A DNA stretch of 64,000 bases from Mobula hypostoma (lineage: Eukaryota). The first letter of the stretch is position 1. Each line of letters opens with the position of its first letter. Positions 12,520 through 63,850 of the stretch are shown here, piece by piece. The translations under genes were made by a program, and so were the position numbers. The notes under the pieces are model-generated. The model made no database searches. It worked only from the letters and a program-made list of their open reading frames with translations, and was not told the DNA's origin. The stretch lies in NCBI RefSeq assembly GCF_963921235.1, contig NC_086097.1:42286001-42350000 (forward strand), read 5' to 3'.

Positions 12520-13165
12520 CTGCAGGCTGCACCCGCAGTCTCTCTTGTGTCTCTCATTTAATTCTCTTGCCTGTGATCCTAACCACATGCCCTCTTGTTT
12601 TCCCCCTCCCTGGGAAAAAGATGCATTTACACACTGTCCCTGCTCTCCATCCAAGCCACAAACCTAGAGGTCCTCAACAGGGCAGGGACCATGAGTGTTG
12701 AAGCCATGATTGTAAAAGAACACCTTCAGTTGATTGGGCATGTCTTACACATGAAATATTCCCAAATTCCCAGAAAGCTACTTTACGGTGAGCTTTTGCT
12801 GGGCAAGAGGAATTGAGACAGGCCCCGAAAGAGGTTCAAAGACTGCATGAAAGCTAACATTGCACTTGCTGGACTTGTTCCAAGATGGATGGAACAGACT
12901 GGCTGGGAAGCCTTGGTTCACTCCATCCTGGAGGAGTGACACCAAGCAGTACTAATCACTGCCCGACAAAAAGGGAAAGGAATAGCAGTGGTTCCACTTC
13001 CAGATCCAGCACAGATTTCATGTCCTTTTTGTGGACATCTGTATCGCTCACAACTTGGACTCAGCAGTCACCTGTGAACAACACAGACTTGTTCACAGGT
13101 GAACAAACAAACTTGTTCACAAACTTGTCATCATCAGATATGACAGACAACCAATCATGCCCCTC
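12520..13165 (+). mobile_element. RTE-clade LINE 3' fragment
   Basis: NLEVLNRAGTMSVEAMIVKEHLQLIGHVLHMKYSQIPRKLLYGEL..GKRN*DRPRKRFKD resembles the RTE C-terminal W.GHV.RM...R.PK..LYGEL..G.R..GRP.KR.KD motif. Confidence 0.8.
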
Positions 13166-14562: not shown

Positions 14563-14673
14563 TTCATTGCTAAAATGTTCCTTGAAGGGCAATCGCCCTG
14601 AGGTCTCGGCCCGAAACATCGACTATCATTCATTTTCATACATGCTGCCTGACCTGCTGAGTTCTTCCAGCAT

Positions 14674-14697
14674 TGTGTGTGTGTGTGTGTGTGTGTG
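14674..14697. repeat. (TG)12 microsatellite expanded from the pLTR TGTGTG tract
   Basis: Directly follows pLTR sequence cctgctgagttcttccagcat. Confidence 0.9.
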
Positions 14698-24839: not shown

Positions 24840-25159
24840 CGAGGGGTAATTGATAAGTTCGTGGCCTAAGGTAGAAGGAATCAATTTTAGGAAACCTAGC
24901 ACATTTATTTTCCAACAAAGTCCCGCCTACATTTACACACTTAGTCCAGCAGTTGTGAAGCTTACGGATCTTGGACCTGCAGAAAGTGTCCACAGCAGGG
25001 GTGATTGATAAGTTTGTGGCCTAAGGTAGAAGGAGATGAGTTCTACAGCTCTTATTACATGCACATGCAGTTCAATGCTTTGAGTGATTATGCAGAAAGT
25101 TTGAAGTTAATAACTCATCTCCTTCTGCCTTAGGCCACAAACTTATCAATCACCCCTCA
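24840..25159. mobile_element. Mariner-type MITE with TA TSD and an internal third TIR copy
   Basis: TA|CGAGGGGTAATTGATAAGTTCGTGGCCTAAGGTAGAAGGA ... TCCTTCTGCCTTAGGCCACAAACTTATCAATCACCCCTCA|TA. Confidence 0.9.
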
Positions 25160-25604: not shown

Positions 25605-26105
25605 ACTTAGAAGATTGAGAGGAGATTTGATAGAGATATACAAAATTATGAGTGGTATAGATAGGGTAAATGCATGCACGCTTTTTCCACTGAGGTTGGG
25701 TGATACTATAACTAGAAGTCAAATCACAAACCGCAGATGCTGGAAATCTGAGCAATACACATAAAATGCTGCCTGGTCTGCTGAGTTCCTCCGGTATTTT
25801 GTGTGTGTTGCTACAACTGGAGGTATTGGGTTAAGGGTGAAAGGTGAAAAGTTTAAAGGAAATATGAGGAGTAAGTTCTTCACTCAGAGTGTTGTGAGAG
25901 TGGGGAACGAGCTGCCAGCACGTGGTGCATGTGAGCTGGATTTCAAAGTTTAAGAGAAGTTTAGCTAGGGACGTGGATAATAGGGGTATGGAGGGCTATG
26001 GTCTCAGTGCAGGTCACTGGAAGTGGGGAGTGTAAATGGTTTGGCACAGACTAGATGGGCCAAAGGGACTGTTTCTGTTCTGTAATTTTCTATGATTCTA
26101 TGACT
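25605..26105 (+). mobile_element. CR1 3' fragment with a mini pLTR fold-back inserted at ~25721-25810
   Basis: RRLRGDLIEIYKIMSGIDRV; degenerate TSD ctataactagaagt / ctacaactggaggt. Confidence 0.8.
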
Positions 26106-29981: not shown

Positions 29982-31607
29982 CATGGCAGATTCCGGTTAA
30001 TTGAGTCACATTGGGGCCGGTACATTTTTGATCTATTTAAGTGGCTGCCCCAATTAGCTGAAATTTCATGAAAACAGTTGAAAAGGTATAAAAAAGACAC
30101 TTAACTGAGTAACAACTTATATATTTAAACGACATACAGAACAAATTAGAACACTGCGGATACTTCTGGTGTTTGTCTGTTATATCTGATGACGACAGGA
30201 ATCCTGTGCAGGAGAGTTGTCAAAGAGGAAAAGCCACTGCACTGGGGCAGTTCCACTCTCAGAAGTCCAGGTTCATTGGAACGAGTAGGCATCACAACTG
30301 CAATCTTTCCTTTTCACATTTTAATTCCACATTCCATTCCCATTCTGACATGTCTATCCACGGCCTCCCCTACTGTAAAGATGAAGCCACACTCAGGTTG
30401 GAGGAACAACACCTTATATTCCGTCTGGGTAGCCTCCAACCTGATGGCATGAACATCGACTTCTCTAACTTCCGATAATGCCCCACCTCCCCCTCGTACC
30501 CATCCTTTATTTATTTATATACACACATTCTTTCTCTCTCTCTCCTTTTTCTCCCTCTGTCCCTCTGACTATACCCCTTGCTCACCCTCTGGATTTCCCC
30601 CCCCTCCCCCTTTTCCTTCTCCCTAGGCCTCCTGTCCCATGATCCTCTCATATCCCTTTTGCCAATCACCTGTCCAGCTCTTGGCTCCATCCCTCCCCCT
30701 CCTGTCTTCTCCTATCATTTTGGATCTCCCCCTCCCCCTCCCATTCCCACTTTCAAATCTCTTACTAGTTCTTCCTTCAGTTAGTCCTGACAAAGGGTCT
30801 CAGCCTGAAACGTCCACTGTACCTCTTCCTAGAGATGCTGCCCAGCCTGCTGCATTCACCAGCAACTTTGATGTGTGTTGCTGCGGTCTTTCCTGTTGGC
30901 AATGGATGGCCATGACTTCTGTGCTCTGACTGCTCTCTACGCAGCATTACAGAACCACTTTCAGCCCATTTGATCGCACTCATATATCTCATCTGCCAGA
31001 GCTGACTTCACGTGCTAGCACAGACCAGGGTATGAGACCCATTGGGCACCCTCACTTGAATTTTCCGTCCTGTCAAAGTGGTGTACCGTGGTGTGGCAAA
31101 CAGCCTCATGAAACCACAGGTGTGAGCTGAGTGTCTGGTGGGGACCAAAGTAACATTTAAGGTCATTGTCGATGCCTTCAAACTCCTCATAGTTGAAGTA
31201 GTAAAACTGTTTCATTTTTACTCCTGGCCGTTTCTAACATTTCCAAGCCTGAATGCTCGAAACCATGGTGAGCAGTACAGTTCTGAATTATCTTACTACT
31301 TATTTCTCACCAACTATGAGTGACAAAAATCACTGCTTTTTGAACACAAGTACACACAACTGACACTATTTAAAAAGTGTTCACTTGAAGCTCGGTGTGG
31401 TGTCTAATAGCCACACATCAAACACGTAACTGACAGTGGTTAGAAAATGTTCGCTAACTGTCTCCTGCCCCAATTAAGTGGCAATAGTGTCCTAAATAAA
31501 TGAAGGGAATCCAGGCTATTTTCTCGAATTGTTTTTGTTCTTCAAGAGTTGTCCCAAATAAACAGCTGCTGTGATTAACCAATGGCCCAGGTAACTGAAA
31601 TTCGCTG
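29982..31607 (-). mobile_element. Tigger/pogo-like non-autonomous DNA transposon with nested insertions
   Basis: Imperfect TIRs cagattccggttaattg at ~29987 and ccaggtaactgaaattcgctg|TA ending 31607; acidic transposase C-terminus-like remnant YEEFEGIDNDLKCY. Confidence 0.65.
30312..30882 (+). mobile_element. Penelope-like 3' fragment (end of GIY-YIG + pLTR)
   Basis: HFNSTFHSHSDMSIHGL...RLEEQHLIFRLGSLQPDGMNIDFSNFR; pLTR with mutated hammerhead at 30783-30818. Confidence 0.92.
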
Positions 31608-33629: not shown

Positions 33630-33969
33630 TTGACCTCCACATCCTTGACAGTCAATTCCACAATTCACCAGTCCCTGGCTAAAATAATTTCTCCTCATCT
33701 CTTCTCTAGAGGGATATCATCCTTACATTCTGAAACTTTCCCACTGTTGAAAAAGATGTGTTAACATTGGATAGGGTCCAGAGGAGGCTCATGGAAATTG
33801 TTCCAGGAATGAAAGGATTCATGCATGAGGAGTTTTTGATGGCTCTGGTCCTGTACTCACTGTAGTTTAGAAGAACTGGGGGGGGGGGGGGTGATCTTAT
33901 TGAAACCTATCAAATAGTGAAAGGCATGGATGAAGTGGATGTGGAGAGGATGTTTCCTGTAGTGGGGGA

Positions 33970-35121
33970 AGCACATGCAATCTCACTGGCTCTCCACTCA
34001 GTTTTGGATCACCAGAACAATAGCAATACCTACACCACGCTGCTGTTTATTGATTACAGCTCAGTGTGGAACACTATCATACCCTCAGTTCTAATCAACA
34101 AGCTCCAAAACCTGGGCCTCTGTACCTCCCTCTTCAACTGGATCCTTGACTTCCTTATCAAAAGACCGCAGTCAGTGCAGATCAGAAATAACATCTCCTC
34201 CTTGCTGACTGTCAACCCTGGTGCACCTCAAGGATGCAAGCTTAGCCCACAGCTCTACTCTGGCTACGCCGACGACTATGTGGCCATACATAACTCAAAC
34301 ACCATCCACAAATTTGCTGATGACACAGCTGGTGTTGGCAAAATTTCAGATGGTGGTGAGGAACGAGAAAGATGAGCTGGTTGAGTGGTGTCTCAACAGC
34401 AACCTTGCGCTCAAAGTCTAGGACTAAGGAATTGATGTGAACTTCAGGAAGGGGAAGTCGAGGGAATACACACCAGTCCTGATTGAGGAATCAACAGCGG
34501 AAATGTTGAGTAGTTTCAAGTTCCTGGGTGCCAACAACATCTCCAAAGATCAAAGCTGGGCCCAGCACACCGATGCAATTGCGAAAAAGACGCAGCAGCA
34601 ACGATATTTCATTAGGGGTTTGAGGAGACTTGGTATGGTATCAACAGGTTGCATCACCATCTGGTATAGAGGAGCCACTGCACAGGATCAGAAAAAGATG
34701 CAGACAGTTGTAAGTTCAGGTGTCTCCATCATGGGCACCGGCCTCCCCAGCAACCAGAACACCTTCAAAAGGCCACGCCTCAAAATGGCAGCATCCATCA
34801 TTAAGGACCACCATCACCCAGGTCATGCCCTCTTGTCATTGCTACCATCAAGTAAGAGATATAGGAACCTGAAGATGCACACTCAGTGTTGCAGTGCCAT
34901 CTTCATCCCCTCCACCATCAGATTTCAGAATGGACAATGAACCAATGAACATCAGCTCACTTTTTCTCTGCTCTCTTTTAGCATTACTTATTTAATATTT
35001 TAATAGGAACTACACTTATTGCAATTTATAGTGTTATATTATTTATGTATCGCAATGTACTGCAGGTGCTAAACAACAAATATCATGGCAAATGCCAGTG
35101 ATATTAAACCTGATCCTGATT
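33970..35121 (+). mobile_element. Rex1/Babar-type LINE 3' half nested in a CR1 3' fragment (~33745-33969 and ~35122-35375)
   Basis: [44 protein letters not shown]; tail aaacctgatcctgattc; host resumes MFPVVGE|.RTRGHS. Confidence 0.9.
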
Positions 35122-36330: not shown

Positions 36331-36358
36331 ATTTAAAAAATGTAAAATATTTAGATAA

Positions 36359-37305
36359 CTTTTTCCAAGTTTAACCATGTTATAGTTTGGGAAAACCATT
36401 GAAATGTAGTAGGGGGATTAGAATCTTTCCATTTAAATAAAATGGATCTTCTGGCTATTAATGTAACAAATGCAATCAAACGACAAGCTGAAGGGGATAA
36501 ATGACTAAAGTCTATCACTGGTAATCCAAAAATTGCAGTAATAGGATGAGGCTGTAAATCAATACGCAAAACTACTGAAATAATATCAAAAATATCTTTC
36601 CAATATTTTTGCAAAAGAGGGCAAGACCAGAACATATGTGTCAAGGAAGCTACCTCAGAACTACATCTGTCACAGACAGGATTTATATGGTGATAAAAAC
36701 GAGCTAACTTATCCTTAGACATACGCGCCCTACGAACCACCTTAAATTGTATCAAAGTGTGTCTAGCACACATTGAAGAAGTGTTAACTAGTTGGAGAAT
36801 TTTCTCCCATTTCTCTATAGGTAAAGATACCTGAAGTTCTCTTTCCCATTCATTCTTAATTTTATCAGAGGGAAAAAATTAGGAGTGGTACTATTGATCC
36901 TTCCAATAAATTTGAAGAAACTTGGAGGCCACTTATTCAACATTTTCATATGATGTAAGCTGACCTTCTCCGAACCCTTTTCAATAACTTTTTGTTTGTG
37001 TATAGAGGAGCAGAGTTAATGACAAATAATGATTTTAACCGATGAAACATGGCAGCCCAGCCTTTGTTTTGTTTTGTTTTGTTTTTTTTTTGTCTTTTTT
37101 AGTGTAGGGAGACTTTTTCTTTGTATAAAATTTTTCGAATCTTTTTCATATTCAGTTATTAAGAGATCGGGAGGCTTAAATTACATAAGTTACTCGGAGT
37201 CTGTGTCTGTATACGTTAACTGTTATTAATGTAATCCCGATCCCTTTGTATCATTATCATTGTTTTGTTTATCAATTCGAAACTTAATAAAAAAGATTGA
37301 GAAAG
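36359..37305 (+). mobile_element. L1-clade LINE 3' end with 5' inversion (inverted part 36359-36870; sense part 36871-37305)
   Basis: Minus-strand CDRC..ASLTHMFWSC zinc knuckle ending WLNLEK; plus strand continues EKIRSG...WRPLIQHFHMM*, then 3' UTR and AATAAA; perfect 15-bp TSD aaaatatttagataa at 36344-36358 and 37306-37320. Confidence 0.92.
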
Positions 37306-43291: not shown

Positions 43292-44329
43292 TTAAGTATT
43301 CTGTTTTAGTAACATTAATGGAGGATGAACATCAGTCTGAAAGTAAGGGATAACTCACCACACTATCATGAAGTCTTTCATGGTCATTTCAAGACCATGA
43401 AGCCAATTTGGTAAAATATCTGAAAACTCAATTCCTCTGACAGTTTAACAATCTTTTGGTACTGGAGTGCTAGCACCAAGTTTTGGAACAAGCCTTTGGA
43501 GGGACACTTAAATCCACAATCCCCTAATTCAGAGCTAAGTTTATCATCAACTCATAGGCAACTGATAGCATTATATAAGAAGTCTGTAAAAAATTCTCTA
43601 TATCTATATAGATGAAAGCATTCTATTTGTTTTAATCTGAATGGTAATAGAAATACATTGGGAATAAGAAATGATCTATAACAGAATTGTGCTGTGTTTT
43701 TGCTTTGACCCAACTTTCACAATACAACAGAGCTCGACAATTCTGCTGATAAAACAAAGCATGCTTGTTGTATTCTTGGAATAAGCTTTTAAAATAAATC
43801 AGTCACCAGCAATTTGATGCACCGACTTTGAAGAAGAAAAGCTTTATTATCTACAGTTGTCAGGGAGAAGCAGCTTGTTTTTGCAAATCAGAAGCATATC
43901 TCCATTTGAAAATTACTGTATCATGTGGTTATTTACTAGTTTAGCATATCAATGGCCAACAGAGGCAATATAAGCATTTAAGGGTTTACAGTTTTTGTGC
44001 TGTTGAGCCTGAGATCTGCAGTCTCATACGTTGTGCTCCCGAAGTAAATAATGGGCTCCTCCAATCCCCCTACCATTTAAGTGAAAACAAAACCCTCTGT
44101 CTGCACAAGAGATCAACACTCAAGATAGCCATTTCTAAACGCTCTCCGTGGAGAACCAGTTGTGTGTCCATTATTCCGGCCAGTGCCCCACCTCAGTGCT
44201 TCTTGTGTTAATCACCTCAGACTTCATTTTCCTTGTTACTAGAAAATAAATTGGGGCTGGGGGTTGAATGAATGTGATTCTATGGTAGAGCAGAAGAAGT
44301 CAGGTGGAGAATGGATCTTTCTATAGGTA

Positions 44330-44400
44330 AGCACAAGAGATTCTGCAGAAGCTGATGCTGCCTGACCTGCTGAGTTCCTCCAGAGTTTTGTGTGTGCTAC
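44330..44400. mobile_element. 71-bp Penelope pLTR fold-back mini-insertion
   Basis: Inverted pLTR terminus joined to a sense pLTR piece; perfect 14-bp TSD tctttctataggta at 44316-44329 and 44401-44414. Confidence 0.85.
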
Positions 44401-44905
44401 TCTTTCTATAGGTACCAACTTAGTAAATTTATAAATGGCTTTATTACAGTCTCCGAGGTATAGCAAAAAACCAGTCTTGCGTACCATCCATACAGATCAA
44501 TTCATTACAACAGTACACAGAGGTAGCAAAGGGCAAAAAAAAACAGGGTGCAGAATAAACCATTACAGTATACAGTAATAATCCACAGTGCAGGTAAACA
44601 ATGAGGTGAATTGTAAGGTCGAGAGTCCATCTTGTCATGCCAGGGAGCCATTCAATAGTGCTATAACACAGGGGTAGAAAATAGAAGATATTCTTGAGCC
44701 TGCTAATAAGTGCTTTCAGTATTTTGTATCATCTGCTGGATGGGAAGAGGGAGAAGAGAGAATGTCTGGGGTGGGTGAGACCTTTCATTATGCTCCATGA
44801 CCTACTGAGGCAGTGAGATCTGTAGAAAGAGTTCATAGAGGAGCAACACACATCAAAGTTGCTGGTGAACGCAGCAGGCCAGGCAGCATCTCTAGGAAGA
44901 GGTAC

Positions 44906-44941
44906 AGTCGACGTTTCGGGCCGAGACCCTTCGTCAGGACT
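44906..44941 (-). ncRNA. Minimal type I hammerhead ribozyme, intact core
   Basis: Reverse complement AGTC CTGACGA A GGGT-CTCG-GCCC GAAAC GTC GACT: stem I AGTC/GACT, stem II 4 bp, palindromic ACGT stem III, GUC cleavage triplet. Confidence 0.85.
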
Positions 44942-46184
44942 AACTGAAGGAAGAGTTAGTAAGAGATTTGAAAGTGGGAGGGGGAGGGGGAGATCCAAAA
45001 TGATAGGAGAAGACAGGAGGGGGAGGGATGGAGCCAAGAGCTGGACAGGTGATTGGCAAAAGGGATATGAGAGGATCATGGGACAGGAAGCACAGGGAGA
45101 AGGAAAAGGGGTTGGGGGGGAAACCCAGAGGATGGGCAGGGGTTATAGTCAGAGGGACAGAGGGAGAAAAAGGAGAGAGAGAGAAAGAATGTGTGTATAT
45201 AAATAAATAACGGATGGGGTACGAGGGGGAGGTGGGGCATTAGCGGAAGTTAGAGAAGTCAATGTTCATGCCATCAGGTTGGAGGCTACCCAGACGGAAT
45301 ATAAGGCGTGTTCCCTCCAACCTGAGTGTGGCTTCATCTTTACAGTAGAGGAGGCCGTGCATAGACATATCAGAACGGGAATGGGATGTGGAATTAAAAT
45401 GTGTGGCCACTGGGAGATCCTGCTTTCTCTGGCAGACAGAGCGTAGGTGTTCAGCAAAATGATCTCCCAGTCTGCGTCGGGTCTCGCCAATATATAGAAG
45501 GCCACATTGGGAGCACCTCCTCCTGTCCTCCTTTTGTGAAGAAAGGGGCTTCCCTTCCTCCACCATCAACTCTGCTCTCAAACGCATCTCCCCCATTTCA
45601 CGCACATCTGCTCTCACTCCATCCTCCCGCCACCCCACTAGGAATAGGGCTCCCCTGGTCCTCACCTACCATCCCACCAGCCTCCGGGTCCAACATATTA
45701 TTCTCCGTAACTTCCGCCACCTCCAACAGGATCCCACCACTAAACACGTCTTTCCCTCCCCCCCCCACTTTCCGTAGGGATCGCTCCCTACGCGACTCCC
45801 TGTCCTTGTCCATTCGTCCCCCCCATCCCTCCTGGCACTTATCCTTGTAAGCGGAACAAGTGCTACACATGCCCTTACACTTCCTCCCTTACCACCATTC
45901 AGGGTCCCAGACAGTCCTTCCAGGTGAGGCGACACTTCACCTGTGAGTCGGCTGGGGTGATGTACTGCGTCCGGTGCTCCCAATGCGACCTTCGATGTGG
46001 CCCCTCTCCCCCTTTTCCTTCTCCCTGGGCCTCCTGTCCCATGATCCTCTCATATCCCTTTTGCCAATCACCTGTCCAGCTCTTGGCTCCATCCCTCCCC
46101 CTCCTGTCTTCTCCTATCATTTTGGATCTCCCCCTCCCCCTCCCATTCCCACTTTCAAATCTCTTACTAGCTCTTCCTTCAGTT

Positions 46185-46220
46185 AGTCCTGACGAAGGGT
46201 CTCAGCCCGAAACGTTGACT
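46185..46220 (+). ncRNA. Minimal hammerhead, intact core with GUU triplet
   Basis: AGTC CTGACGA AGGGTCTCAGCCC GAAAC GTT GACT. Confidence 0.75.
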
Positions 46221-47942
46221 GTACCTCTTCCTAGAGATGCTGCCTGGCCTGCTGCATTCACCAGCAACTTTGATGTGTGTTGCTTGAGTTTCCAGCATCT
46301 GCAGAATTCCTCGCGTCGTCATAGAGGAGCAGCTGGTTTCCATGATGTGCTGTGTCCACAACTTTCTCCAGTTTCTTACAGTTGTGGGCAGAGCAGTTGC
46401 CATACAAAGCCATGGCACATCAGGACAGGATGCCTTCTATGGTGCATCAATAAAAATTAGTGACCGTCAAAGGGGACATACCAAATTTCTTTAGCCTCCT
46501 GAGTAAGTAGAAGTGTTGGTGAGCTTCCTTACCGTCAATATGGTTGGAACAGAATAGGCAATTAGTGATGATCACTCCTAGAGACTTGAAATTCTCAACC
46601 CTTTTGACCTCAGTACCGATGATGCAAACAGGAGCACGTGCATTGCCCCCTTCCTGACTCCAGTGACCAGCTCTTTTATTTTGCTGATATTGAGGGAAAC
46701 ATTTGGTATGTCCCCTTTGACCCTCACCAATTTTTATTGATCTACCATAGAAAGCATCCTGTCCTGATGCATAACACCCTGTTACTAGCCTCTCTATCTC
46801 CTCCCTGTTCTCTGACTCATTGGTATTTGGGATAGAGTTTCATCTGCAAACTTGTTGATGGAACTGGAGCAGAATCTGCTCACACAGTTATGTATGTGTG
46901 TGCAGGGCGTAGAATAGGGCCCAGAGGACACGGCCTCGTGGGGCACAAATTTTGAGAGAATAACCATGACAGAGGTGTAGCTACCTATCCTTACTGCTTG
47001 TGGTCTGTTGATCAGGAGGTCAAAGATATAGTTGCAAATGGAGGTGTTGAGTCCCAGTTTTAGGAGTTTGGAGATGATTTCACTTGGAATTATAGAAATA
47101 AAGGCAGTGCTGTAGTCAATAAACAATAGTCTAATGTACAGTGCTTATAAAATGTATTCACAGCCCCCCCCCTTCATGTTTTAGTGTTTTACAACATTGA
47201 ATCACAGTGGATTTAATTTGGCTTTTTTGACACTGATCAACAGAAAAGACTCTGACATGTCCAAGTAAAAACAGATCTCTACTAAGTGATCTAAATTAAT
47301 TAAAAATATAAAACACAAGATTACTGATTGCGTAAGTACTCACCCCCTTCAAGTCAGTGTTTAGTAGGTGTACCCTTGGCAGCAGTTACAGTCTTGAGCC
47401 TGTATGGGTAGGTCTCTATCAGCTTTGCACATCTGGACGCTGCAAATTTTCCCCATTCTCTTTTATAAAACTGCTAAAGCTCTGTCAGATTGCATGGAAA
47501 TCGTGAATGAACAGCCCTTTTCAGGTCGAGCCACAAATACTTAATTGGATTGAGGTATGGACTCTGATTTGGCCAATCCAGGACATTAACTTTGTTGTTT
47601 TTAAGCCATTGCTGTGTAGCTTTGGCTTAAAGCTTAGGGTCATTGGCTTACTGGAAAACAAATCTTCTCCCAAATCACAGTTCTCTTGCAGACTGTTTCA
47701 GGTTTTTCTCCAGGATTTCCCTGTATTTTGCTGCATTCATTTTACCCTCTACTTTCACAAGCCTTCCAGGGCCTGCTGCAGTGAAGCATCCCCACTGCAT
47801 GATGCAGCCACCACCATGCTTCACGGTAGGGATTTTAAAAATGTAAACACCAGGAATTCTGCAGATGCTAGAAATTCAAGCAACACACATCAAAGTTGCT
47901 GGTGAACACAGCAGGCCAGGCAGCATCTCTAGGAAGAGGTAC

Positions 47943-47978
47943 AGTCGACGTTTCGGGCTGAGACCCTTCGTCAGGACT
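47943..47978 (-). ncRNA. Minimal type I hammerhead ribozyme, intact core
   Basis: Reverse complement AGTC CTGACGA AGGGTCTCAGCCC GAAAC GTC GACT. Confidence 0.85.
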
Positions 47979-49176
47979 GGAAACAGCTTATCTACTGATG
48001 TCTACTATAAGCCTACTGACTCTCACAGCTATCTGGACTATTCCTCTTCTCACCCTGTCTCTTGCAAAAATGCCATTCCCTTCTCGCAATTCCTCCGTCT
48101 CCACCGCATCTGCTCTCAGGATGAGGCTTTTCATTCCAGGACGAAGGAGGTGTCCTCTTTTTTTAAAGAAAGGGGCTTCCCTTCCTCCACCATCAACTCT
48201 GCTCTCAAATGCATCTCCCCCATTTCACGCACATATGCTGTCACTCCATCCTCCCGCCACCCCACTAGGAATAGGGTTCCTCTGGTCCTCACCTACCCCC
48301 CCCACCAGCCTCCGGATCCAACATATTATTCTCTGTAACTTCCGACACCTCCAACGGGATCCCACCACTAAGCACATCTTTCCCTCCACACCCCCCGCTT
48401 TCCGCAGGGATCGCTCCCTATGCGACTTCCTTGTCCATATGTCCCCCCCATCCCTCCCCACTGATCTCCCTCCTGGCTCTTATCCTTGTAAGCGGAACAA
48501 GTGCTACACATGCCCTTACACTTCCTCCCTCACCACCATTCAGGGCCCCAGACAGTCCTTCCAGATGAGGCGACACTTCACCTGTGAGTCAGCTGGTGTG
48601 ATATACTGCGTCTGGTGCTCCTGATGTGGCCTTCTATATATTGACGAGACCCGACGCAGACTGGGAGATCGTTTTGCTGAACAGCTATGCTCTGTCCGCC
48701 AGAGAAAGCAGGATCTCCCAGTGGTCACACATTTTAATTCCAAATCCCATTCCGATATGTCTATCCACGGCCTCCTCTACTGTAAAGATGAAGCCACACT
48801 CAGGTTGGAGGAACAACACCTTATATTCTGTCTGAGTAGCCTCCAACCTGATGGCATGAACATTGACTTCTCTAACTTCCACTAATGCCCCACCTCCCCC
48901 TCGTACCCCATCCGTTATTTATTTATATACACACATTCTTTCTCTCTCTCTCCTTTTTCTCCCTCTGACTATACTCCTTGCCCATCCTCTGGGTTTTTCT
49001 CCCCTCCCCCCTTTCCTTCTCCCTGGGCCTCCTGTCCCATGATCCTCTCATATCCCTTTTGCCAATCACCTGTCCAGCTCTTGGCTCCATCCCTCCCCCT
49101 CCTGTCTTCTCTTATCATTTTGGATCTCCCCTTCCCTCTCCCACTTTCAAATCTCTTACTAGTTGTTCCTTCAGTT

Positions 49177-49212
49177 AGTCCTGACAAAGGGTCTCGGCCC
49201 GAAATGTCGACT
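49177..49212 (+). ncRNA. Inactivated hammerhead copy
   Basis: CTGACAA (core G8>A) and GAAAT; both are CpG-type transitions. Confidence 0.65.
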
Positions 49213-52200
49213 GTACCTCTTCCTAGAGATGCTGCCTGGCCTGCTGCATTCACCAGCAACTTTGATGTGTGTTGCTTCACAGTAGGGATGGTGTGTTTTT
49301 AATAATGTGCAGTGTTTGGCTTACACCAAACATAACATTTAGTCTGATGGCCAAGAAGATCAACTTGGGTTTCATCAGACCATTGAACCTTCTTCTAGCT
49401 GACTTCAGCTCCCACATGCCTTCTGGCAAACTCTAGCCGAGATATCATGTGAGCTTTTTCCAACAGTGGCTTTCTCTTTGCTACTCTCCCATAAAGCTGT
49501 GACTGGTGAAACACTTGGGTAAAGTTGTTCTGTGTGCAGTCTTTCCCATCTCAGCTACTGAAGCTTGTAACTCTTCCAGAGTTGTCACAGGTATCTTGGT
49601 GGCCTCCCTCACTAGTCCCTCTTCTTGCACAGTCACTCAGTTTTTGAGGACGGCCTGCTCTGGGCAGATTTACAGCTGTACCATATTCTTTCCACTTCTT
49701 GATGATTGACTTAACTGTACTCTAAGAGATATTCGGTGACTTTGGTAATTTTCTGGTCTCCATCTCCTGACTTGTGCTTTTCAATAACCTTTTCATGGAG
49801 TTGCTTGGAGTCTTTTGTCTTCATGGTGTAGTTTTTGACATGATACTGACTCACCAGCAGTACTGACCCTCCAGATACAGGTATATTTTTACTACAACTA
49901 ATTGAAACACCTTGTCGGCACACAATGATCTTCATGTAATTAGTTGTGTGACTTCTAAAACTAATTGGCTGCACCAGTGATGATTTGGTGTGTGATATTA
50001 AAGGGGGTGAATCCTTATGCAATCAATTATTTTGTGTTTTATATTTTGTAATTAACTTAGATCACTTTGTAGAGATCTGTTTTCATTTTGACACAAACGT
50101 CTTTTTCTGTTCATCAGTGTCAAAAAAGCCAAATTAAATCCACAATAAAACATGAAAACTTCCAGCGGTGGGGGGGGGGGGGGTGAATACTTTTTATAGG
50201 CACTGTCGGTGTCTTTACTCTGCAGGTGCTCCAGAGATGTGAATAGGGCCAGGTAGACTGTGTCTGATGTAGACCTTTTTCAGCGATAAGCAAATTGCAG
50301 TGGATCAAGTTTGTCCGGGAGGTTGGTGTTAATGCTTGTCATGACCAGCTTGTCGAAGCACTTTATGATAATCAATGTCAGGGGCACTGGGCAACAGTAT
50401 CTAAAGCATGCTGGCTTGTTTTTCTTAATTACTGGGAGGATAGTGGTCTTAAAGAGCCTGGGAACCTCAGATTGCAGCAGGGAGAGGTTAAAAATGCCTG
50501 CAAATACCCCCGGTAGCTGATCTCTGCAAGATCTAAGTACATGGCCAAGAATACCATCCAGGCCAGTTACTTTCTTTGGGTGGACTCTCTGGAAGATCGC
50601 TATTAACTCCACAGTGAGGACTATAAGTTCAGGTGCTTTGGTGGCTCCAGGCTGGGTGGTGACATTCTAATTCCCTACTGCTGTTTCGTTTAGTTGTATA
50701 TATCTGTACGGTTGAATGACAATAAACTTCAACTTGAACGTACATAAAATACTTCAAGCTCATCAGGAAGTGATGTGCTGTTGTTGCCAAAGCTGCCTGA
50801 CTTTGTGCTGAGGCCCATTATAGCATGTAAGCCCTGCCAGAACGGATGACTAGTGTGGAGTTCTATTGTCTGAAGGCATGCCTGATAATTTTACAGTGGC
50901 CTCAATTTCTTGTAAAGATCAGGGTCACCTGACTTGAATGATTCCTGATCAGAATTCCTGGTTCTCCTGGTTTGTCCATGGTTTCCAGTTTGGGATTACC
51001 TGGTCTGTCCTATTTGTTAGACAATCCTCAACACACTTGCTGATAAAGTCCACGATGGTGAAGACATACTCATCAAGGCTAAATGCTGAGTCTTCGAACA
51101 TGGTCTGTCAGCTCAAAGAAGTTGCATCGAAGATCACCTGTTTCCTCAGACCAACACAGTATGACTTTCTGTACTGAATCCGCCCAACTCAGCTTCGGTT
51201 GTACGCTTTGAGAAAGAGCATGGCCTAGTGGTCGGAATTACCAAAATATGGGTGGAGGGGGGGTAGATAGTTCAGTAGGCATCTTCTATAGCTGTCTAGC
51301 GTCATCAAGGGTTACCTGAAAGATGTTCCTTCCTAGAGGTAACAACCTCTACCCTTCTCTATCAAACATTTGAGGGAATCTCCTACATAACACTGGATTG
51401 TGAAATGTAAGGCCTCCATCAAAATAAAACTACGGGAGGAACTCAGAAGGTCGAGCAGAATCTGCGATGGCAAACTGATGGTCAGAGTTACGGGTCGTGA
51501 GCCTGCTTGAGGGCTGACAGATGCTGTATCTATGATCTCCATTATTTCTCTTTTACCCAAGGGGGTGGTGGATGATTAGTCACTGAGTATCTGCCACAGG
51601 TTTTTAGACATCTTGAGATATGAGATTACAAAATGGCAAGGTATGTAATGGTGGAGCAGGTCCAGGAGACTGATTAGCCTGCTCCTGCTTCCGCACTTAT
51701 TGTGGAATAATGTCCTTTCAGTGAGTCAGGTAGTTAACAATACCTTCGTATCTGAGAAGATGCACATACCTTTGAAGTCCTCAGCTAAAGGAACAACCTC
51801 ACCAATCAGCTGCTGACAGAGCAGCGTAATCAGATTTAAGATTTTGCTTGCTGTTCATCTAGAGTAGAACTTCTCAAGCAAACATGATGATCACCCTTAA
51901 TCCTTCCATTTTAAGAAAATGTAGTCAGATGCCTGACAGGTCTTGAGAATCAGAAGGGCAGAGACAGATGATCTTTACTCAATAATGTAAGCACTAAAGG
52001 ACAGCAAATGCACATGAAGGAGTTGCTAAACGCAAATTAATTTATCCCCAGTTAGTGCAAGATGTTATTGTAATAAAAAAATTAAGGCAAGTTCCGTGGC
52101 AGGCATAGCCACCCAGTGGCATATCACAGTTGATTCCAACACTAACAAGAGAAAATCTGCAGATGCTGGAAAGGAAGATTTAAACCTCCAGGTATCCCTC

Positions 52201-55194: not shown

Positions 55195-57460
55195 ATCCAA
55201 GACGGTGCCACACTAGTGGCAGCTTGTTGTAGTAGCTCTTCCACTGCACTTCCCCCACTTGGCAGATTGACCACAACCCGCTCTTGCTCACACCCGGGTA
55301 CGTGCCTCTGGTCTAACGGCAGCCTGCATCAACAAGGATTGTAAGGAGGCGGACTCAGGATGTAAATGAGGCACTGCAGGAATGCTTTGAGAGGACGGAC
55401 TGCGGTGGGTTATGTGAGCCACACAGGGAGGATGCCACCAAAATGACGGATTGTATCACAGGCTACATCAAATTCTGAGAGAACACCATCCTGCCAGCCA
55501 GGACTGTACACTGCTTCCCCGACAACAAGCCTTGGATCACCAGTGACCTGAATATGAAGAAGAAAGCCATCAGGTCTAGAAATGGACAAGTACTGAGAAA
55601 AGTACAGAGTGAACTGAGGGTAAAGCTGATGGAGTACAAAGAATCCTACAGGAGGAAGCTGGAGTACAGGCTCCAGCAGAATAACATAAGGGAGGTGTGG
55701 TCAGGTATGAAGCAGATCACCGGCTTCAAGGTTGAGGAAAGGAAGTTCGAGGGCTGCCTGGATAGGGCCAACAAATTGAAATTGTTTTTCAACAGGTTCA
55801 GCATGACAGTTCCTTCTGTGCCCTCCCCCACATGCCCAGACCACACACCCTCCTTGCCCCCAAAGCCTTCTCCCTTCACCCTTCCCTCCCCTCTGGTGAG
55901 TGGTTGTGTTCCAAAACCCCCACCCCACCAACTTTTGAGTATCCTGCCTTCATGAGGATGACCGTTGTCCCCCACCTGACTGTGACTGCAGGCCAGGTTA
56001 AGAGACAGCCGGAGGGACTACATCAAGGCAAGGCTTCTGGACCAGACGGTATCAGCCCCAGGGTACAGAAGGCCTGTGCAACCAGCTGTCTGGTATTTTG
56101 GAGCACCTTTACAATCTGAGTCTGAGTCTGAGTCAGGAAAAGATACCGGTGCTATGGAAGACTTCCTGCCTGGTTCCTGTAGAAGGGGATTCCATCTGAA
56201 CTTAATGACTACAGAACAATTCCCCTCACATCTCATGGGATGAAGGTGCTGGAGAGGCCGGTTCTGACTTACCTTGGTCCGCAGGTGAGATCTTCATTGG
56301 ACTCTCTACAGTTTGCCTGTCCATCTCGTGGGAGTGGATGATGCCATCATCTACCTTGCAGAGAGCTCACTCCCACCGGGATGATGCTGGTGGCATTGTG
56401 AGAATCACATTTTTGATTTCTCTAATGTCTTCAATACAATCCAGTCACTTCTTCTGAGTGAGAAGCTGAAAAGGCTAGGCATAGAGAAACCCATAATCTC
56501 CTGGATTACCGACTACCTGACAGATAGACCCCAGTTTGTACGGCTGGGTAGTTCTCTGTCTGAGATGGTGGTGAGTGGCTATGAAGTGCCACAAGGGACT
56601 GTCCTGTCTCCGTTTCTGTTCACACTGAACACCTCAGTCTTTCAGTACAAATCTGAGTCTTGTCACTTGCAGAAGTTCTCTGATGACTCTGCGGTGGTTG
56701 GGTGTATCAGGGATGGGCAGGAGTTGGAGTACAGAGGATTGAAGGACACGTTTGTGGAGTGGTGCAGGAGGAATCACCTGCTCGTGAATGTGGCCAAAAC
56801 CAGGGGGATGGTGATTGATTTTAGGAGGAAGAGGACTGTGACGAGTCCTGTATACATTCTGGGAGAAGAAGTTGCGGTGCTGGAGGAGTACAAATACTTG
56901 GGTGTTCACCTCGACAACGAACTTGACTGGAAAACCAACACCAGGGCCGTTTACAGGAAGGGGACGAGCAGACTCTATTTTCCAAGGAAGCTGAGATCCT
57001 TTAAAGGCTGGATCCTTGGCTACAGCCCGGACTCTTTTAAGTTAGTGGTGGAGAGGGGTCACTAAACAAACTGTTATCATCATGAACAATCAGGAACGTC
57101 CTCTCCATGACCTACTGAATAGGTAGTAGAGTACCCTTTCAAACAGGCTCATTCAGCTCCACTGTCACAAGGATCGTTACAGGAAAATCGTTCCTACCAA
57201 ATACAATAAGCATATACAACAGTTCATCTCTGTGCAGTGGGAGAACACACACCATAGTACAATGCTTTCTGTTTTATTATTTTGTACATTATTATTGTAC
57301 AGAATTGCACATTGGTAAATTATTATTGTGTATATTATTATTCTGTACTTCATTATTAGTTAAGTCTGTGCACTGCTAAGTGTGTTTTTAAATGTTGCTG
57401 CTGTAATAAAAGAATTACCCACTTGGGATCAGTAAAGTACTTATTACTATTATTATTATT
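55195..57460 (+). mobile_element. Rex1/Babar-type LINE (end of APE + RT) with (TAT)n tail
   Basis: NKPWITSDL, KASGPDGISPR, VPQGTVLSPFLFTLNTS, LQKFSDDSAVVG, KTRGMVIDFRRK, YKYLGVHLDN. Confidence 0.9.
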
Positions 57461-58554: not shown

Positions 58555-59514
58555 TAGTCATAGAATCATAGAAAATTATAGCACAGAAACAGCCCTTCAG
58601 CCCATCTAGTCCATGCTGAAACCATATAAACTGCCTACTCCCATTGACCTGCACAGAGACTACAGTCCTCCATGCCCCTACTGTCCAAACTTCGCTTAGA
58701 AGTTGAAATAGCACCTGTAGCACTTGTGCTGGCAGTTCATTCCACACTCTCACAACCCCTCATGTTCCCTTAAGCTTTTCACCTTTCACCCTTAACCCAT
58801 GACCTCTGGTTGTAGTCTCATCCAACCTCAGTGGAAAAAGTCTACTTCTATTTACGCTATCTATACCCCTCATAATTTTGTATACCTCTATCAAATCTCC
58901 TCTCAATCTTCTGCATTCTAAGGAATAAATTCCTAGCCAATTCAATCTTTCCTTATACTCAGGTCCTCCAGACCTGACAACATACTGCTGAAGGGTTTCG
59001 GCCTGAAACATCGACAGTACTTTTTTCCACAGGTACTGCCTGGTCTGCTGAGTTCCTCCACCATTTTGTGTGTGTTGCTTGGATTTCCAGCATCTGCAGA
59101 TTTTCTCTTGTTTGTGATCAGGACATCTTTCCAAATTTTCACTGTAATCTTTTAAATTTATTTACATCTTTCCTGTAGTTAGGTGACCAAAACAGCTCAT
59201 AATACTTCAAATTAGGCCTCACCAGTGTTTTATACAACTTCAACATAACTTCCCAAATCCTGTACTCAGTAGATTGATTTTTGAAGGCCAATGTATGAAA
59301 AGCTTTCTTTATGACCCTATCACCTGTGACACCACTTTCAATGAATTATAGACCAGTATTCCCAGATCCCTTTGTTCTACCACACTCCTCAGTGGCCTAC
59401 CGTTCACTGTATAAGACTTACCCTGGTAGGTCCTACCGAAGTGCAACATCTTGCACTTGTCTGCATTAATTTCCATCTGCCACTTTTCAGCCCATTTTTC
59501 CAGCTGATGCAGAT
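58555..59514 (-). mobile_element. CR1 3' part; contains a pLTR fragment at ~58985-59116; continues at 62507
   Basis: QLEKWAEKWQMEINADKC, SLECRRLRGDLIEVYKIM; tail atagtcatagaatcatag. Confidence 0.88.
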
Positions 59515-60400
59515 AGAAACATAGAAACGTAGAAAACATTCAGTACAATACAGGCCCTTCGGCCCAGAAAGCTGTGCCGAACGTGTCCCTACCATAGAAC
59601 TACCTAGGCTTTAAACATAGCCCTCTATATTTCTAAGCTCCATGTAGCCATCCAGGAGACTCTTAAAAGACCCTATTGTGTTTGCCTCCACCACCGCTGC
59701 CAGCAGCCCATTCCACACACTCACCACTCTCTATGTAAAAATCTTACCCCTGACATCTCCTCTGTACCTACATCCATGCACCTTAAAACTATGCCCTCAC
59801 ATGCTAGCCATTTCAGCCCTGTGGAAAAGCCTCTGACTATCCACATGATCAATGCCTCTCATTATCTTGTACACCTCTGTCAGGTCACCTCTCATCCTCC
59901 GTCGCTCCAAGGAGAAAAGGCCGAGTTCACTCAACCTATTCTCATAAGGCATGCTCCCCAATCCAGGAAACATCCTTATAAATCTCCTCTGCGTCCTTTT
60001 TATGGTTTCCACATCCTTCCTGTAGTGAGGCAACCAGAGTTGAGCACAGTACTCCAAGTGGGGTCTGACCAGGCTCATATATAGCTGCAACATTACCTCT
60101 TGGTTCTTAAACTCAGTCCTACAGTTGATGAAAGCCAATGCACCATATGCCTTCTTAACCACAGAGTCAACCTGCATAGCTGCTTTGAGTGTCCTATGGA
60201 CCCAGACCCCAAGATCCGTCTGATCCTCCACAATGCCAAGAGTCTGACCATTAATGCTATATTCTGCCATCATATTTGACCTACCAAAATGAACCACCTC
60301 ACACTTATCTGGGTTGAACTCCATCTGCCACTTCTCAGCCCAGTTTTGCATCCTATCAATGTCCCGTTGTAATTTCTGACAGCCCTCCACATTATCTACA
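59515..60400 (-). mobile_element. CR1 3' part with (TGTTTCTA)n tail
   Basis: ORF 59797..60414 LQRDIDRMQNWAEKWQMEFNPDKC...RPHLEYCAQLW. Confidence 0.92.
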
Positions 60401-60409
60401 ACTATTATG

Positions 60410-60990
60410 ATCACTTTACCCTAAAGGTTTTAGCTTAAGCTCTCTAATCAATTTCGGTTCTTTGCACAACACCCAATCCAGAATAGCTGAAAAAAAAGCC
60501 ATTTCGTAGGCATTCTAGAAATTCCATCTCTTGGTATCCCACACCAGCTTGATTTCCCCAATCTACCTGCATATTGAAATCCCCCATGACTATTGTAACA
60601 TTTCCCTTTTTGCATGCATTTTCTATTGCATATGGTAACTTGTAGACCACGTCCTTACTACTCTTTAGGTGTCTGTATAATACAACCGCTATCAGGGTCT
60701 TTTTACCCTTGTAGTTCCTTAGCTCTATCCACAAAGATTCAACATCTTCTGACCGCCCCCCATGTCACCTCTTTCTAATGATTTAATTTCATTTTTTACC
60801 AACAGAGCCACACCACCCGCTCTGCTTTCCTGCCTGTCCTTTCAATACAATGTGTATCCTTGGACATTAAACTGCCAGCTATAATCTTCTTTCAAGCATG
60901 ATTTAATGATGCCTACAACATCATACCTGCCAATCTGTAATTGTGCTGGGAGTTCATCAACCTTATTCTGTACACTGCACACATTCACAT
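60410..60990 (-). mobile_element. CR1 AP-endonuclease fragment
   Basis: NVCSVQNKVDEL, WIELRNYKGKKTL, IVMGDFNMQVDW. Confidence 0.8.
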
Positions 60991-62056
60991 CACATATTAC
61001 ACCTTTAGTCTTGTATTCACCTTTATCGATTTTGTCCACCTTCTACACCTTTTTCAAGGACTTTAAGCTTACTGACACCCTTTTAGTTCAACAGTACTGT
61101 TATTCCAAAAATAAATAAATGCCGAAGATACCAGAGAGCAGGGGTTCCCAACCCGGGGTCCACAGATCCCTCAGTTAACGGTCAGGGTCTATGGTATAAA
61201 AATGGTTTGGAGGTACCTAGAGATATGTGGTCGAAGCCTAGGAAATTGGGATGTACTGGGTCAGCATGGATTCACTGGGCCGAAGGGCGTGTATCTGTGA
61301 TGTATTGCTCAATGACCCGAGACTATGGAAATGTGACTTTGAAGAATTGAATTACCCTCTGCCAAGTCTGTATTCAGTGGGCCTATCAGTTGTCTGATTA
61401 CATGCATCATTCATTGGTCAATTTAGTGAACAATTATTTCATTTAAAAATCAAAGTAGAACTTTTCAAGATAAAAATTAAGAACTTGGTTGAGTGGCTCT
61501 GGCTTGATGTAAGATTTCGAACATAATTTTGCAATATTGCCCTCATACATATTGTTACAGACAGGTTTGCAAACAATTAGATCTGTGGAAATGGTTAAAA
61601 TGAGGAGGCTGGTTCAAGTGTGGAACGAGCTGTCAGTGCAAGTGGTGAATGGGGGCTCAACTGCAATATTTAGGAGAAGTTTGGATAAGTTCACGGCTGA
61701 GAGGGGTAGGGAGGGCCATGGTCCTCGTGTGGGTTTATGGGACTAAACAGAAGGATTGTATGGCACAGATTAGATGGGCCAAAGGGCTTGTATTGTAGTG
61801 TGCAGTAGCTCTCTATGACTCAAAAACTCCATCGAAAAAATTATAATGAAGAATCATCCAAGGCTCAGTCGTATCACACTCACTTCTGAATCAAAATGTA
61901 GGTGCAAGTCCAACCTAGAGATTTGAACTGGTACTTCAATGCCAGTGTTGCTTGAGGTGTCTTCCTTCCATCTAAAACTGAGTTCCCTCTTAGGTGACAC
62001 ACATCAAAGTTGCTGGTGAACGCAGCAGGCCAAGCAGCATCTGTAGGAAGAGGTAC

Positions 62057-62092
62057 AGTCGACATTTCAGGCTGAGACCCTTCGTCAGGACT
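62057..62092 (-). ncRNA. Hammerhead copy with C>T change in stem III
   Basis: Reverse complement AGTC CTGACGA AGGGTCTCAGCCT GAAAT GTC GACT. Confidence 0.7.
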
Positions 62093-62116
62093 AACTGAAG
62101 GAAGAGTTTCTCAGTT

Positions 62117-62152
62117 AGTCCTGACGAAGGGTCTCGGCCTGAAACGTCGACT
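62117..62152 (+). ncRNA. Minimal type I hammerhead ribozyme, intact core
   Basis: AGTC CTGACGA AGGGTCTCGGCCT GAAAC GTC GACT. Confidence 0.8.
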
Positions 62153-62506
62153 GCACCTCTTCCTACAGATGCTGCCTGGCCTGCTGCGTTCACCAGCAAC
62201 TTTGATGTGTGTTGCTTGAATTTCCAGCAACTGCAGAATCCCTGTTGTTTCCCTCTTAGGTGGATGTAAAAGACCGTAAAATACTTGTTTAAGGAAGATT
62301 TGAGCAACTTTCTTTACTGTCTTGGCCAATATTCATCTCCCACTCAAAAAGACAAAACATTGATTTACCTAGAAGTTCAACTGTAGTCAATAGTGCTAAG
62401 GTTGCTATATAATCCAGTCAATGCACTGTACAATACCTCTGAAATTTCATTTCCATTGAAATCATTAAAAGTATTTTAAGGGCAGGATAAAGAGCACTGC
62501 TTTGAG

Positions 62507-63850
62507 AGATCTCGCTGAAAACCATGATAGCTTTCCTCACTATCCACTACACCCCTAATCTTGGTGTCACCTGCAAATTTGCAGATCCAGTTAACCACAT
62601 TATCATCCAGATCATTGATACAGATGACAAACAACAACGGACCCAGCACCAATCCCTGCGGCACTCTACTAGTCACAGGCCTCCAGTCAGAGGGGCAACC
62701 CTCTACAACCACTCTTTGGCTTCTCCCACAAAACAAGTATCTAATCCAATTTACAACCTCATCCTGAATGCTCAGCGACCGTAAGTTCTTAACCAGCATC
62801 CCATGCGGGACTTTGTCAAATGCCTTGTCAAAATTCCATGTAGGCAACATCTACTGCCTTGCCTTCATCAGCTTTCCTGGTAATTTCTTTGGTTAGACTT
62901 GACCTACCATGCATGAAGACATGCTGACTATCCTTAATCACGCCATGTCTGTCCAAATATTTAAATATCCAGTCTTCAGAATGCCTTCCAATAACTTCCC
63001 CGAAATGGATGTCAGACTCACCAGCCTATAATTTTCTGGTTTATGTTAGAGTCTTTCTTAAACAGCAGAACAGCATTGTCTATCCTCCAATACTCTGGTA
63101 CCTCTCCTGTCGCCAAGGATGATTTAAATATCTCTGCTAGGGCCTTGGCAATTTCTGCCTCCCATAGGGTCCCAGGGAACACCTTGTAGGGCCTGGGGAT
63201 TTATTCACCCTAATTTGCCTCAGGACAGCAAACACCTCCTCTGTAATCTAGATAGGCTCCATGAAGTTGATTCCCCTTTGCCTCACTTCTATAGTCTCTG
63301 TCCATCTCCTGAGTAAATACAGATGCAAAATATTTAAGATCGCCCCCATCTCTTTTGGCTCCATATATGGATTAACATTCTGATCTTCCAGAGGACCAAT
63401 TTTGTCCCTTACAATCTTTATGCTCCTAACGTATCTGTAAAATCCCGTAGGATTCTCCTTCATCTTGTCTGCCAGGGCAACTTCATGCCTTCTTTTAGCC
63501 TTCCTGATTTCTTTCTTAAGTGTTCTCTTGTATTTCTTATACTCCATAAGCACCTCATTTGTTCTTACCTGCCTATACCTGCTAGGCATCTCCTTTTTCT
63601 CATAACCAGCCTCAATATTTCCTGAAAACCAACATTCCCTGAACTTGTTATCTTTACCTTTAACTCTGACAGGCACATACAATCTCTGTACTCTCAAAAC
63701 TTCACTTTTGAAGGCCTCTCAGTTGCGAAGTGCACCTCTGCCAGCAAACAGCCTGTCCCAATCCACACATGACGTATCATTTCTGATACCATCAAGATTG
63801 GTCTTACTCCAATTCAGAATCTTAATCCACGGACCAGACTTATCTTTTCA
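62507..63850 (-). mobile_element. CR1 ORF2 (linker + RT), upstream part of the 58555-59514 copy
   Basis: KENPTGFYRYV, DKAFDKVPHG, VPQGLVLGPLLF, KFAGDTK, HGFQRDL. Confidence 0.9.

Follow-up and report, generated by a model that had tools for sequence, protein, structure and literature searches.

We analysed a window of 64,000 nucleotides of the Mobula hypostoma genome (RefSeq assembly GCF_963921235.1, contig NC_086097.1), and all coordinates given here are those of the window. The window is repeat-rich, and we identified no host exon in it. It contains dispersed fragments of Penelope-like elements (PLEs) that share a repeated 36-nt motif which, as judged from its letters, is a minimal type I hammerhead ribozyme (HHR) sequence in the PLE terminal repeat (pLTR). 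Seven young copies of this motif belong to four insertions (A to D), of which A, B and C are inverted pairs, and further copies lie in older, decayed elements (Table 1). Other repeats accompany the PLEs. LINE-type reverse transcriptase (RT) fragments lie at 3477-3902, 16987-17923, 33866-34940, 36351-36878, 46447-47144, 56385-57065, 59797-60420 and 62476-62850, called from RVT_1, zf-RVT and ALKBH8_N-like matches and, for 46447-47144, by eye. The fragment adjoining insertion A contains a 69-nt inverted duplication (46418-46486 and 46701-46769, 91%), and a 200-nt inverted repeat of 97% identity lies at 1745-1944 and 3826-4025, about 1.9 kb apart. A third inverted repeat, at 24997-25157, with arms of about 40 nt and a 60-nt loop, is possibly a small non-autonomous DNA transposon and was a source of spurious Rfam miRNA matches.

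Table 1. Hammerhead-bearing and related PLE features of the window. Positions with a sign are relative to the predicted cut site; TSD, target-site duplication.
Feature	Coordinates	Strand	Basis or detail
Minimal HHR, type I, intact, GUC	44906-44941	(-)	sequence, strict descriptor and consensus of PMC4209133 Fig. S3
Minimal HHR, core intact, GUU (C17U, CpG transition)	46185-46220	(+)	scan and strict descriptor
Insertion A, left arm: GIY-YIG 3' half (45240-45515), 3' UTR, HHR, short end at about +68, tailless	44842-45517	(-)	
Insertion A, right arm: thumb and linker fragment, deletion near 45996-46001, 3' UTR, HHR, tail to about +100	45518-46318	(+)	
Insertion A, TSD	44833-44847 and 46319-46333	(+)	15 nt, 1 mismatch
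Insertion B, left arm: short, tailed, begins at first base of stem I (-32), intact HHR 47943-47978	47845-47978	(-)	
Insertion B, right arm: 5'-truncated PLE with RT thumb, linker, broken GIY-YIG, 3' UTR, HHR 49177-49212, short end	47979-49277	(+)	
Insertion B, TSD	47817-47833 and 49273-49289	(+)	17 nt, 1 mismatch
Insertion C, left arm: short, starts 11-14 nt upstream of stem I, HHR 62057-62092, tailless	61997-62108	(-)	
Insertion C, right arm: short, starts 6 nt upstream of stem I, HHR 62117-62152, tail	62111-62250	(+)	
Insertion C, TSD	61983-61996 and 62249-62262	(+)	14 nt, exact
Insertion D, solo young: endonuclease end, 3' UTR, HHR 30783-30818, short end	30315-30882	(+)	
Insertion D, candidate TSD	30304-30314 and 30887-30897		weak
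Older-subfamily PLE: RT fragments, endonuclease end (9441-9461), decayed HHR 9756-9791, tail	7783-9895	(+)	
Older-subfamily terminal copy, damaged HHR and tail	58981-59121	(+)	36-mer scan and profile
Old terminal copy, start inside stem II (about -19)	14602-14684	(+)	36-mer scan and profile
Old decayed copy: HHR 12249-12284, terminal block 12461-12549 past A-rich insert	12249-12549	(+)	
Old decayed copy, HHR remnant and tail	21508-21634	(-)	36-mer scan and profile
Old HHR trace	509-544	(-)	core pattern and 36-mer scan
Faint HHR trace (51480-51515) and terminal block	51416-51515	(-)	E=0.03; newly added
Inverted mini insertion, same PLE family, HHR-less	25731-25813		profile of sequence 3' of cut site

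The copy at 44906-44941 reads, on the (-) strand, AGTC CTGACGA A GGGT CTCG GCCC GAAA CG T C GACT. Both the numbering of hammerhead positions and the parts played by G8 and G12 are established. G12 acts as the general base (PMC6155905). Stem I (AGUC/GACU) has 4 bp, or 5 if a U.G pair is counted, and leads into the core CUGACGA, with an extra A directly after A9; stem II has 4 bp with a G10.1-C11.1 closing pair and a 4-nt loop, and GAAA is followed by the palindrome ACGU and C17, with no loop III. All of the parts named in the preliminary description, namely the hammerhead core, stems I and II, an NUH triplet and a palindromic stem III, were thus found in this copy, and the cleavage point that we predict, between 44910 and 44909, is the one predicted there.

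A strict minimal-HHR descriptor matched at 44937(-), 47974(-), 62121(+) and 46189(+, GUU) and nowhere else in the 64-kb window, with 0 matches in 100 controls. The core (C3-U4-G5-A6-N7-G8-A9 and G12-A13-A14-A15.1) was complete in all four copies; the triplet was GUC in three and GUU in one, with U16.1-H17 followed by an open stem I, and the ACGU palindrome (15.1-16.1) was found in 4/4. These four are exactly the copies that had been called intact, and the companion list of mutated copies needs correcting for 62057, the core of which is intact too. When up to one mismatch was allowed, the core pattern gave 10 matches against 0.88 expected, and none of 100 shuffles reached 10; one of the ten, at 59504, lies outside the motif family. 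Scanning with the whole 36-mer found 7, 8, 11, 13 and 14 places in the window at up to 6, 8, 10, 12 and 13 mismatches, respectively, where the maxima in 30 Markov controls were 0, 0, 0, 0 and 1. The scan recovered 13/13 of the places counted earlier as about a dozen copies, together with a faint 14th at 51480-51515(-). Among the 14 window copies, the stem II closing pair 10.1/11.1 is G-C in five and G.U in six. An Rfam search of the window (E<=1) returned six matches and no hammerhead family, consistent with the earlier remark that annotation pipelines normally overlook such sites; the miRNA matches at 62069 and 25013 were rejected, being of inverted-repeat origin and scoring far under gathering cut-offs.

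The motif lies about 300 nt past the stop codon of a GIY-YIG reading frame on the same strand. This frame (CxxC-GLLYIGE ... LQPDGMN) had its best protein matches, among 11, in rays (89% identity in Mobula hypostoma, 84% in Hypanus sabinus), and the placement of the motif in a PLE pLTR, already proposed from the sequence, is borne out by the frame and these ray proteins. Three pieces of the window align to ray protein P0001 with 87-92% identity. Window fragments alone matched no family in a Pfam search; GIY-YIG was matched in the related proteins P0001, P0003 and P0006 (E 5e-4, 8e-4 and 8e-5), and the longer relatives P0012 and P0016 carry RVT_1 plus a C-terminal GIY-YIG. The ESM Atlas grouped P0001 with HTH_animal/GIY-YIG clusters, which serves as a lead only. 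With domains assigned by way of the 87-92% identical relatives, the element, having an RT as well as a C-terminal GIY-YIG endonuclease (EN), is an EN+ PLE. A CX4CxxC linker is present at 45846-45872 and 48487-48513, along with CCHH residues in the EN. Because a CX2-5CxxC linker between RT and EN marks Neptune and Nematis (PMC8557442), and the vertebrate PLEs reported in bioRxiv 10.64898/2026.07.22.740005 are Neptune and Poseidon only, we file the host element, from its linker and the literature description, as likely a member of the Neptune clade.

Ray gene models P0001-P0005 and P0011 are partly or wholly PLE RT-endonuclease annotated as host protein, two of them under the names 'mucin-2 isoform' and 'divergent protein kinase domain 1C isoform'. 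In metagenomes, relatives of P0001 were found at 29 loci (40-63% identity), mainly as RT pieces without 3' ends, and the exact motif had 0 occurrences in viral contigs. One metagenome contig, L013, carries a strict minimal HHR at 1585-1625(-) with a 7-bp stem II, an AUAU palindrome and U7; we dropped it as evidence, since its distance to the RT match is about 1.2 kb and the two are on opposite strands.

The TSDs of insertions A to C are unlikely to have arisen by chance because of their length, a judgement made on a search run without a shuffled control. Relative to the cut site, the 3' ends of the copies fall into two classes, one at about +64 to +69 and the other at about +100 to +109, and exactly one arm is tailed in 3/3 inverted pairs. 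5' truncation, an inverted 5'-truncated partner and a 30-40-nt tail at one end have been described for PLEs (PMC8557442), and the PLE 'tail' has been traced to two internal reverse-transcription start sites (PMC11167929). The older-subfamily PLE is 72% identical to insertion B over 8619-9501. A mini insertion of about 70 nt at 44330-44401 (in 44318-44415) belongs to the same PLE family and consists of an inverted tail and terminal block without an HHR, flanked by a 14-nt target duplication read by eye. Within the 64-kb window we found no full-length pLTR-ORF-pLTR tandem unit, and the head-to-tail tandem non-coding HHR units that are a feature of retrozymes were not present.

After insertion the copies appear to have decayed mainly via CpG transitions, as is supported by the count of differences: the 10 CpG columns, out of 92, account for 13 of the 22 that separate the seven young copies. 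The copy at 62117-62152(+) is intact with C11.1U, while 49177-49212(+) carries G8A and C15.2U, and 30783-30818(+) carries G8A, C11.1U and a G1.1C transversion that breaks the stem I closing pair, so that G8A is present in 2/7 young copies. In 62057-62092(-) helix III is damaged by C15.2U, and the tolerated C11.1U is present as well. The earlier reading of core damage at 30783, 49177 and 62057 as CpG-type agrees with the distribution of differences, but has to be amended in that the core of 62057 is undamaged and 30783 also carries its transversion. Just upstream of the damaged core at 58981, a second stem-I/core-like start at 58960-58990 suggests that the core of the ribozyme took up a short insertion or was duplicated in part, not that it was truncated.

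To follow the motif beyond the window, we turned to related elements in public contigs. The query 44800-45130 matched 37,403, 6,639, 7,101 and 108 contig pieces in runs X21, X1, X3 and X9, respectively, and a 50-nt motif query matched 14,263, 374, 894 and 2,231 in runs X21, X19, X14 and X10; both count pieces, not copies, and contig depth does not equal copy number. In 7/7 runs, the loose alignment ends listed gathered at both edges of the motif (44904-44907 and 44939-44943). Downstream, the loose consensus returns to the conserved terminal block past a variable spacer, and other subfamilies therefore appear to share the motif and not its immediate flanks. A dip in depth at 44903-44906 in all runs was set aside, as it is accounted for by these subfamily flanks and contigs cannot show RNA ends. 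Among the 40 variants listed, of 67, for X21, X1, X3 and X9, C11.1U and N7 were the only motif positions more than 20% variant. C11.1U, which keeps a G.U pair, reached 17, 61, 51 and 41% in these runs, and changes at the free N7 18, 8, 13 and 72% (C7U in X9); G12A, which shares a CpG with C11.1, stood at 18, 5, 7 and 17%, and other CpG changes listed in the motif at 3-18%. The two changes of the shared CpG were asymmetric in 3/4 runs and symmetric in X21 (17.4 vs 17.8%). This pattern suggests that master elements with tolerated changes multiplied and those without G12 did not, and selection on the motif in master lineages is suggested by the same comparison.

Between old and young window copies the terminal block was alike at 27-29/36 positions, the HHR at 27-28/36 and the upstream sequence at 19-20/36; since the terminal block is as conserved as the HHR, conservation is not peculiar to the ribozyme. 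Compensatory double changes numbered 0 for 8 pairs across the 14 window copies, and in the contigs the changes were one-sided and tolerated only. Of conservation and covariation, which the preliminary description had raised as a check, conservation points in its favour: similarity to other subfamilies stops at the motif edges in every run, and frequent variants occur only at tolerated positions. Covariation is not shown within the window, where no pair is compensated, and the terminal block is equally conserved. Because the terminal block differs by 2 nt between old and young copies, we also rejected the idea of a reading frame or uORF conserved across it.

Predicted folding indicates that the monomer alone would form an inactive rod that sequesters its core. 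In the predicted folds of six of the seven young 36-mers, G5-A6-N7-N8 pairs with positions 15.2-17 of the cut-site strand. For the 44906 36-mer, the predicted energies were -11.9 kcal/mol for the rod vs -7.9 for the open junction, and -23.8 for two rods vs -14.7 for the active dimer, nearest-neighbour values that ignore tertiary core contacts and Mg2+; monomer folding z-scores were unremarkable (-0.4 to -1.5). We rejected the idea that the N7:16.2 pair is an off switch conserved across animals, given that in Fig. S3 of PMC4209133 it is Watson-Crick in 7, wobble in 7 and unpaired in 27 of the 41 entries with a 4-nt helix III, a tally made by eye with 15 entries of longer helix III excluded. The partners of a pair cannot make a dimer in cis, because their arms are inverted and lie on opposite strands, and they would instead pair into long hairpins. 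Read-through of pair C in either direction is predicted to give a single hairpin of about -217 kcal/mol, and the 44906 36-mer with its partner's antisense a duplex of -69.6 kcal/mol. The sole intact pair on one strand, 47943(-) and 44906(-), is separated by 3,037 nt, and its members come from two different insertions that both have an antisense arm. The expectation that copies at this density would amount to many working self-cleavage sites was not supported, in that 6/7 young copies lie in inverted pairs with predicted long duplexes and a self-sequestered core, and published monomers are inactive. More generally, antisense pairs, predicted self-inhibition and CpG decay mean that motif counts overstate working ribozymes.

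We next asked how the copies end relative to the predicted cut site. All 14 HHR-bearing window copies continue intact across it, and none of these 14, a small sample, starts at +1; nor did any of the HHR-less terminal matches inspected (25731/25764, 44330/44354, 5997, 14922 and 52144). Because every HHR copy spans the cut site and none starts there, the template was presumably uncut or re-ligated, and the dispersed copies were likely copied from uncut RNA, with the proviso that copies made from a circular template that had been cut and religated would look the same. At their 5' ends, three of the seven young arms start at -32, -38 and -43 to -46 from the cut site, which is 0-14 nt upstream of stem I, and the other four start about 500-1,230 nt upstream; a rough post hoc binomial estimate for this clustering is p about 0.001-0.01. 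No cap-like extra G stands directly at the 5' junction in 3/3 young short arms. The starts just upstream of stem I hint at a transcript start. In Drosophila virilis, Penelope has an internal promoter with a start 46 nt before an intron (PMC2377424), the end of which abuts helix I (PMC4209133), a position that is compatible, by analogy, with a start just upstream of stem I. We speculate that the element's RNA may begin just upstream of the ribozyme, that the short arms 47845-47978, 61997-62108 and 62111-62250 may be complete strong-stop cDNAs of its first 110-140 nt, primed at two internal sites, and that G5-G8, by pairing with the cut-site strand, may keep the ribozyme inactive until copying is over and the element's own protein refolds it. 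We hold this proposal only tentatively and think it is rather doubtful as a whole; if true, short copies would provide a genomic map of Neptune transcription starts, and PLE hammerheads would have a role in timing.

Together, these observations lead us to regard as probable, with moderate confidence, that the minimal hammerhead in the terminal repeat of this PLE, likely a Neptune, forms an inactive rod on its own and would cut only in the element's own RNA with the element's protein, and that the dispersed copies are passive leftovers, made from uncut RNA and mostly inert. That the copies would be mostly inert and the ribozyme would act in the element's own RNP is suggested by the rod fold, the published inactivity and the antisense arms. 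In vitro, monomers of the Schistosoma mansoni minimal HHR remain uncut, and dimers and trimers cleave weakly (PMC4209133). The HHR of the Anolis element PAc, which is a Poseidon and not a Neptune, cleaves only with the element's protein, PAc HHR mutants insert normally, and no RNA-seq reads are reported to end at its cut site (PMC11167929). By analogy with PAc, reverse transcription of the ray element may begin downstream of the ribozyme, at two internal sites, and proceed 5' through it, with many cDNAs stopping early to yield short copies. Cleavage may come late or be of minor weight, serving to trim tandem read-through RNA, and may be dispensable for insertion. Selection would operate in master elements only, and copies would decay neutrally after insertion.

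The strongest competitor dispenses with the protein: two pLTR ribozymes of a tandem element would pair via ACGU:ACGU and cut unit-length RNA, and the ligated circle would serve as the RT template. This is the model of Cervera & de la Peña, and dimer cleavage is also named in the preliminary description. The palindrome in 4/4 strict copies, the weak cleavage of S. mansoni dimers and trimers, and the strong cleavage of 1/9 Xenopus retrozyme dimers (bioRxiv 10.64898/2026.07.22.740005) would be expected of such a route, and reverse transcription across a re-ligated junction would likewise leave it unbroken in the copies, as observed. We nevertheless judge it unlikely, since the predicted energy of the active dimer lies about 9 kcal/mol above that of two rods and about 17 above that of the best cofold, the other 8/9 Xenopus dimers were uncut in that study, PAc needed protein and used unprocessed RNA (PMC11167929), and the window holds no pLTR-ORF-pLTR unit. 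Less probable again, and in our estimate quite improbable, is that the fold has been retained chiefly as a structural signal (for protein binding, as an internal promoter or as an RT stop at the RNA 5' end) with catalysis incidental. This would account for the 3/7 young copies that start within 14 nt of the motif's 5' edge, for PAc insertion being unaffected by HHR mutants, and for the Naiads, which thrive without HHRs (PMC8557442); it sits poorly with the conservation of the core across metazoan PLEs (PMC4209133 Fig. S3) and with G12 variants being rare where their CpG partner C11.1 is free to vary (3/4 runs), which fits selection on chemistry.

We see very little prospect that the dispersed copies have been exapted as active cleavage sites with an influence on host transcripts. 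Four strict copies in 64 kb (one selected window), two intact copies on one strand at 47943(-) and 44906(-) only 3,037 nt apart, and the abundance of intact-core contigs in runs guessed to be RNA would invite this reading, but both of those same-strand copies have an antisense partner arm and would be drawn into duplexes of the predicted strength given above, copies decay at CpG sites even to the point of losing G8, monomers are inactive in PMC4209133, and no host gene was identified in the window. Finally, a chance resemblance to the hammerhead, to which the lack of compensatory changes in the window and of an Rfam hammerhead match might point, is virtually dismissed by the empty 100 controls and by a motif that fits the published consensus in full and lies where in the pLTR it would be expected (PMC4209133).

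The class itself is known and ordinary: minimal HHRs in PLE pLTRs have been described since Cervera & de la Peña 2014 (PMC4209133), as the preliminary description had recognised, and what is added here is a Neptune-like example from a ray, of which the 2014 alignment has none: cartilaginous fish are found neither among the 56 motifs of Fig. S3 nor in Table S1. HHR retrozymes have been reported in one chondrichthyan genome (bioRxiv 10.64898/2026.07.22.740005), and a targeted literature search, with most subscription journals outside its reach, found no published ray HHR. The role of PLE hammerheads is still posed as a question in PMC8557442 and PMC11167929, and this very abundant young family, with copy ends readable genome-wide, offers a practical way to ask what they do.

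Like the metazoan PLE minimal HHRs of PMC4209133, the ray motif has a CUGANGA core with an extra base after A9, G10.1-C11.1, a palindromic helix III without a loop, NUH, a short stem I and a pLTR position. The Acropora digitifera Neptune entry of Fig. S3 shares with 44906 the C7 core, ACGU/C17 and a stem II of 4 bp capped by a 4-nt loop. The ray motif differs from most entries in its shorter, 4-bp stem II, and in that C7-G16.2 and G8-C15.2 self-pairing is possible, N7:16.2 being Watson-Crick in 7/41 entries there. Non-LTR retrozymes likewise carry a type I HHR derived from PLE pLTRs (bioRxiv 10.64898/2026.07.22.740005), but the ray copies are dispersed or inverted and joined to PLE coding fragments, with no head-to-tail units. 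The Anolis Poseidon element PAc (PMC11167929) resembles the ray element in its pLTR HHR, in two 3'-end classes 30-40 nt apart downstream and in insertions that span the cut site; unlike the ray element, with its CX4CxxC linker, it belongs to the Poseidon clade and its ORF starts in stem II, where in the ray element, known here from sequence alone, we saw no conserved reading frame across the HHR. Although the window has no full-length copy or tandem pLTR, the ray element shares with the Neptune EN+ PLEs of PMC8557442 the RT, the CX2-5CxxC linker, the C-terminal GIY-YIG with CCHH, 5' truncation, an inverted partner and the 30-40-nt tail.
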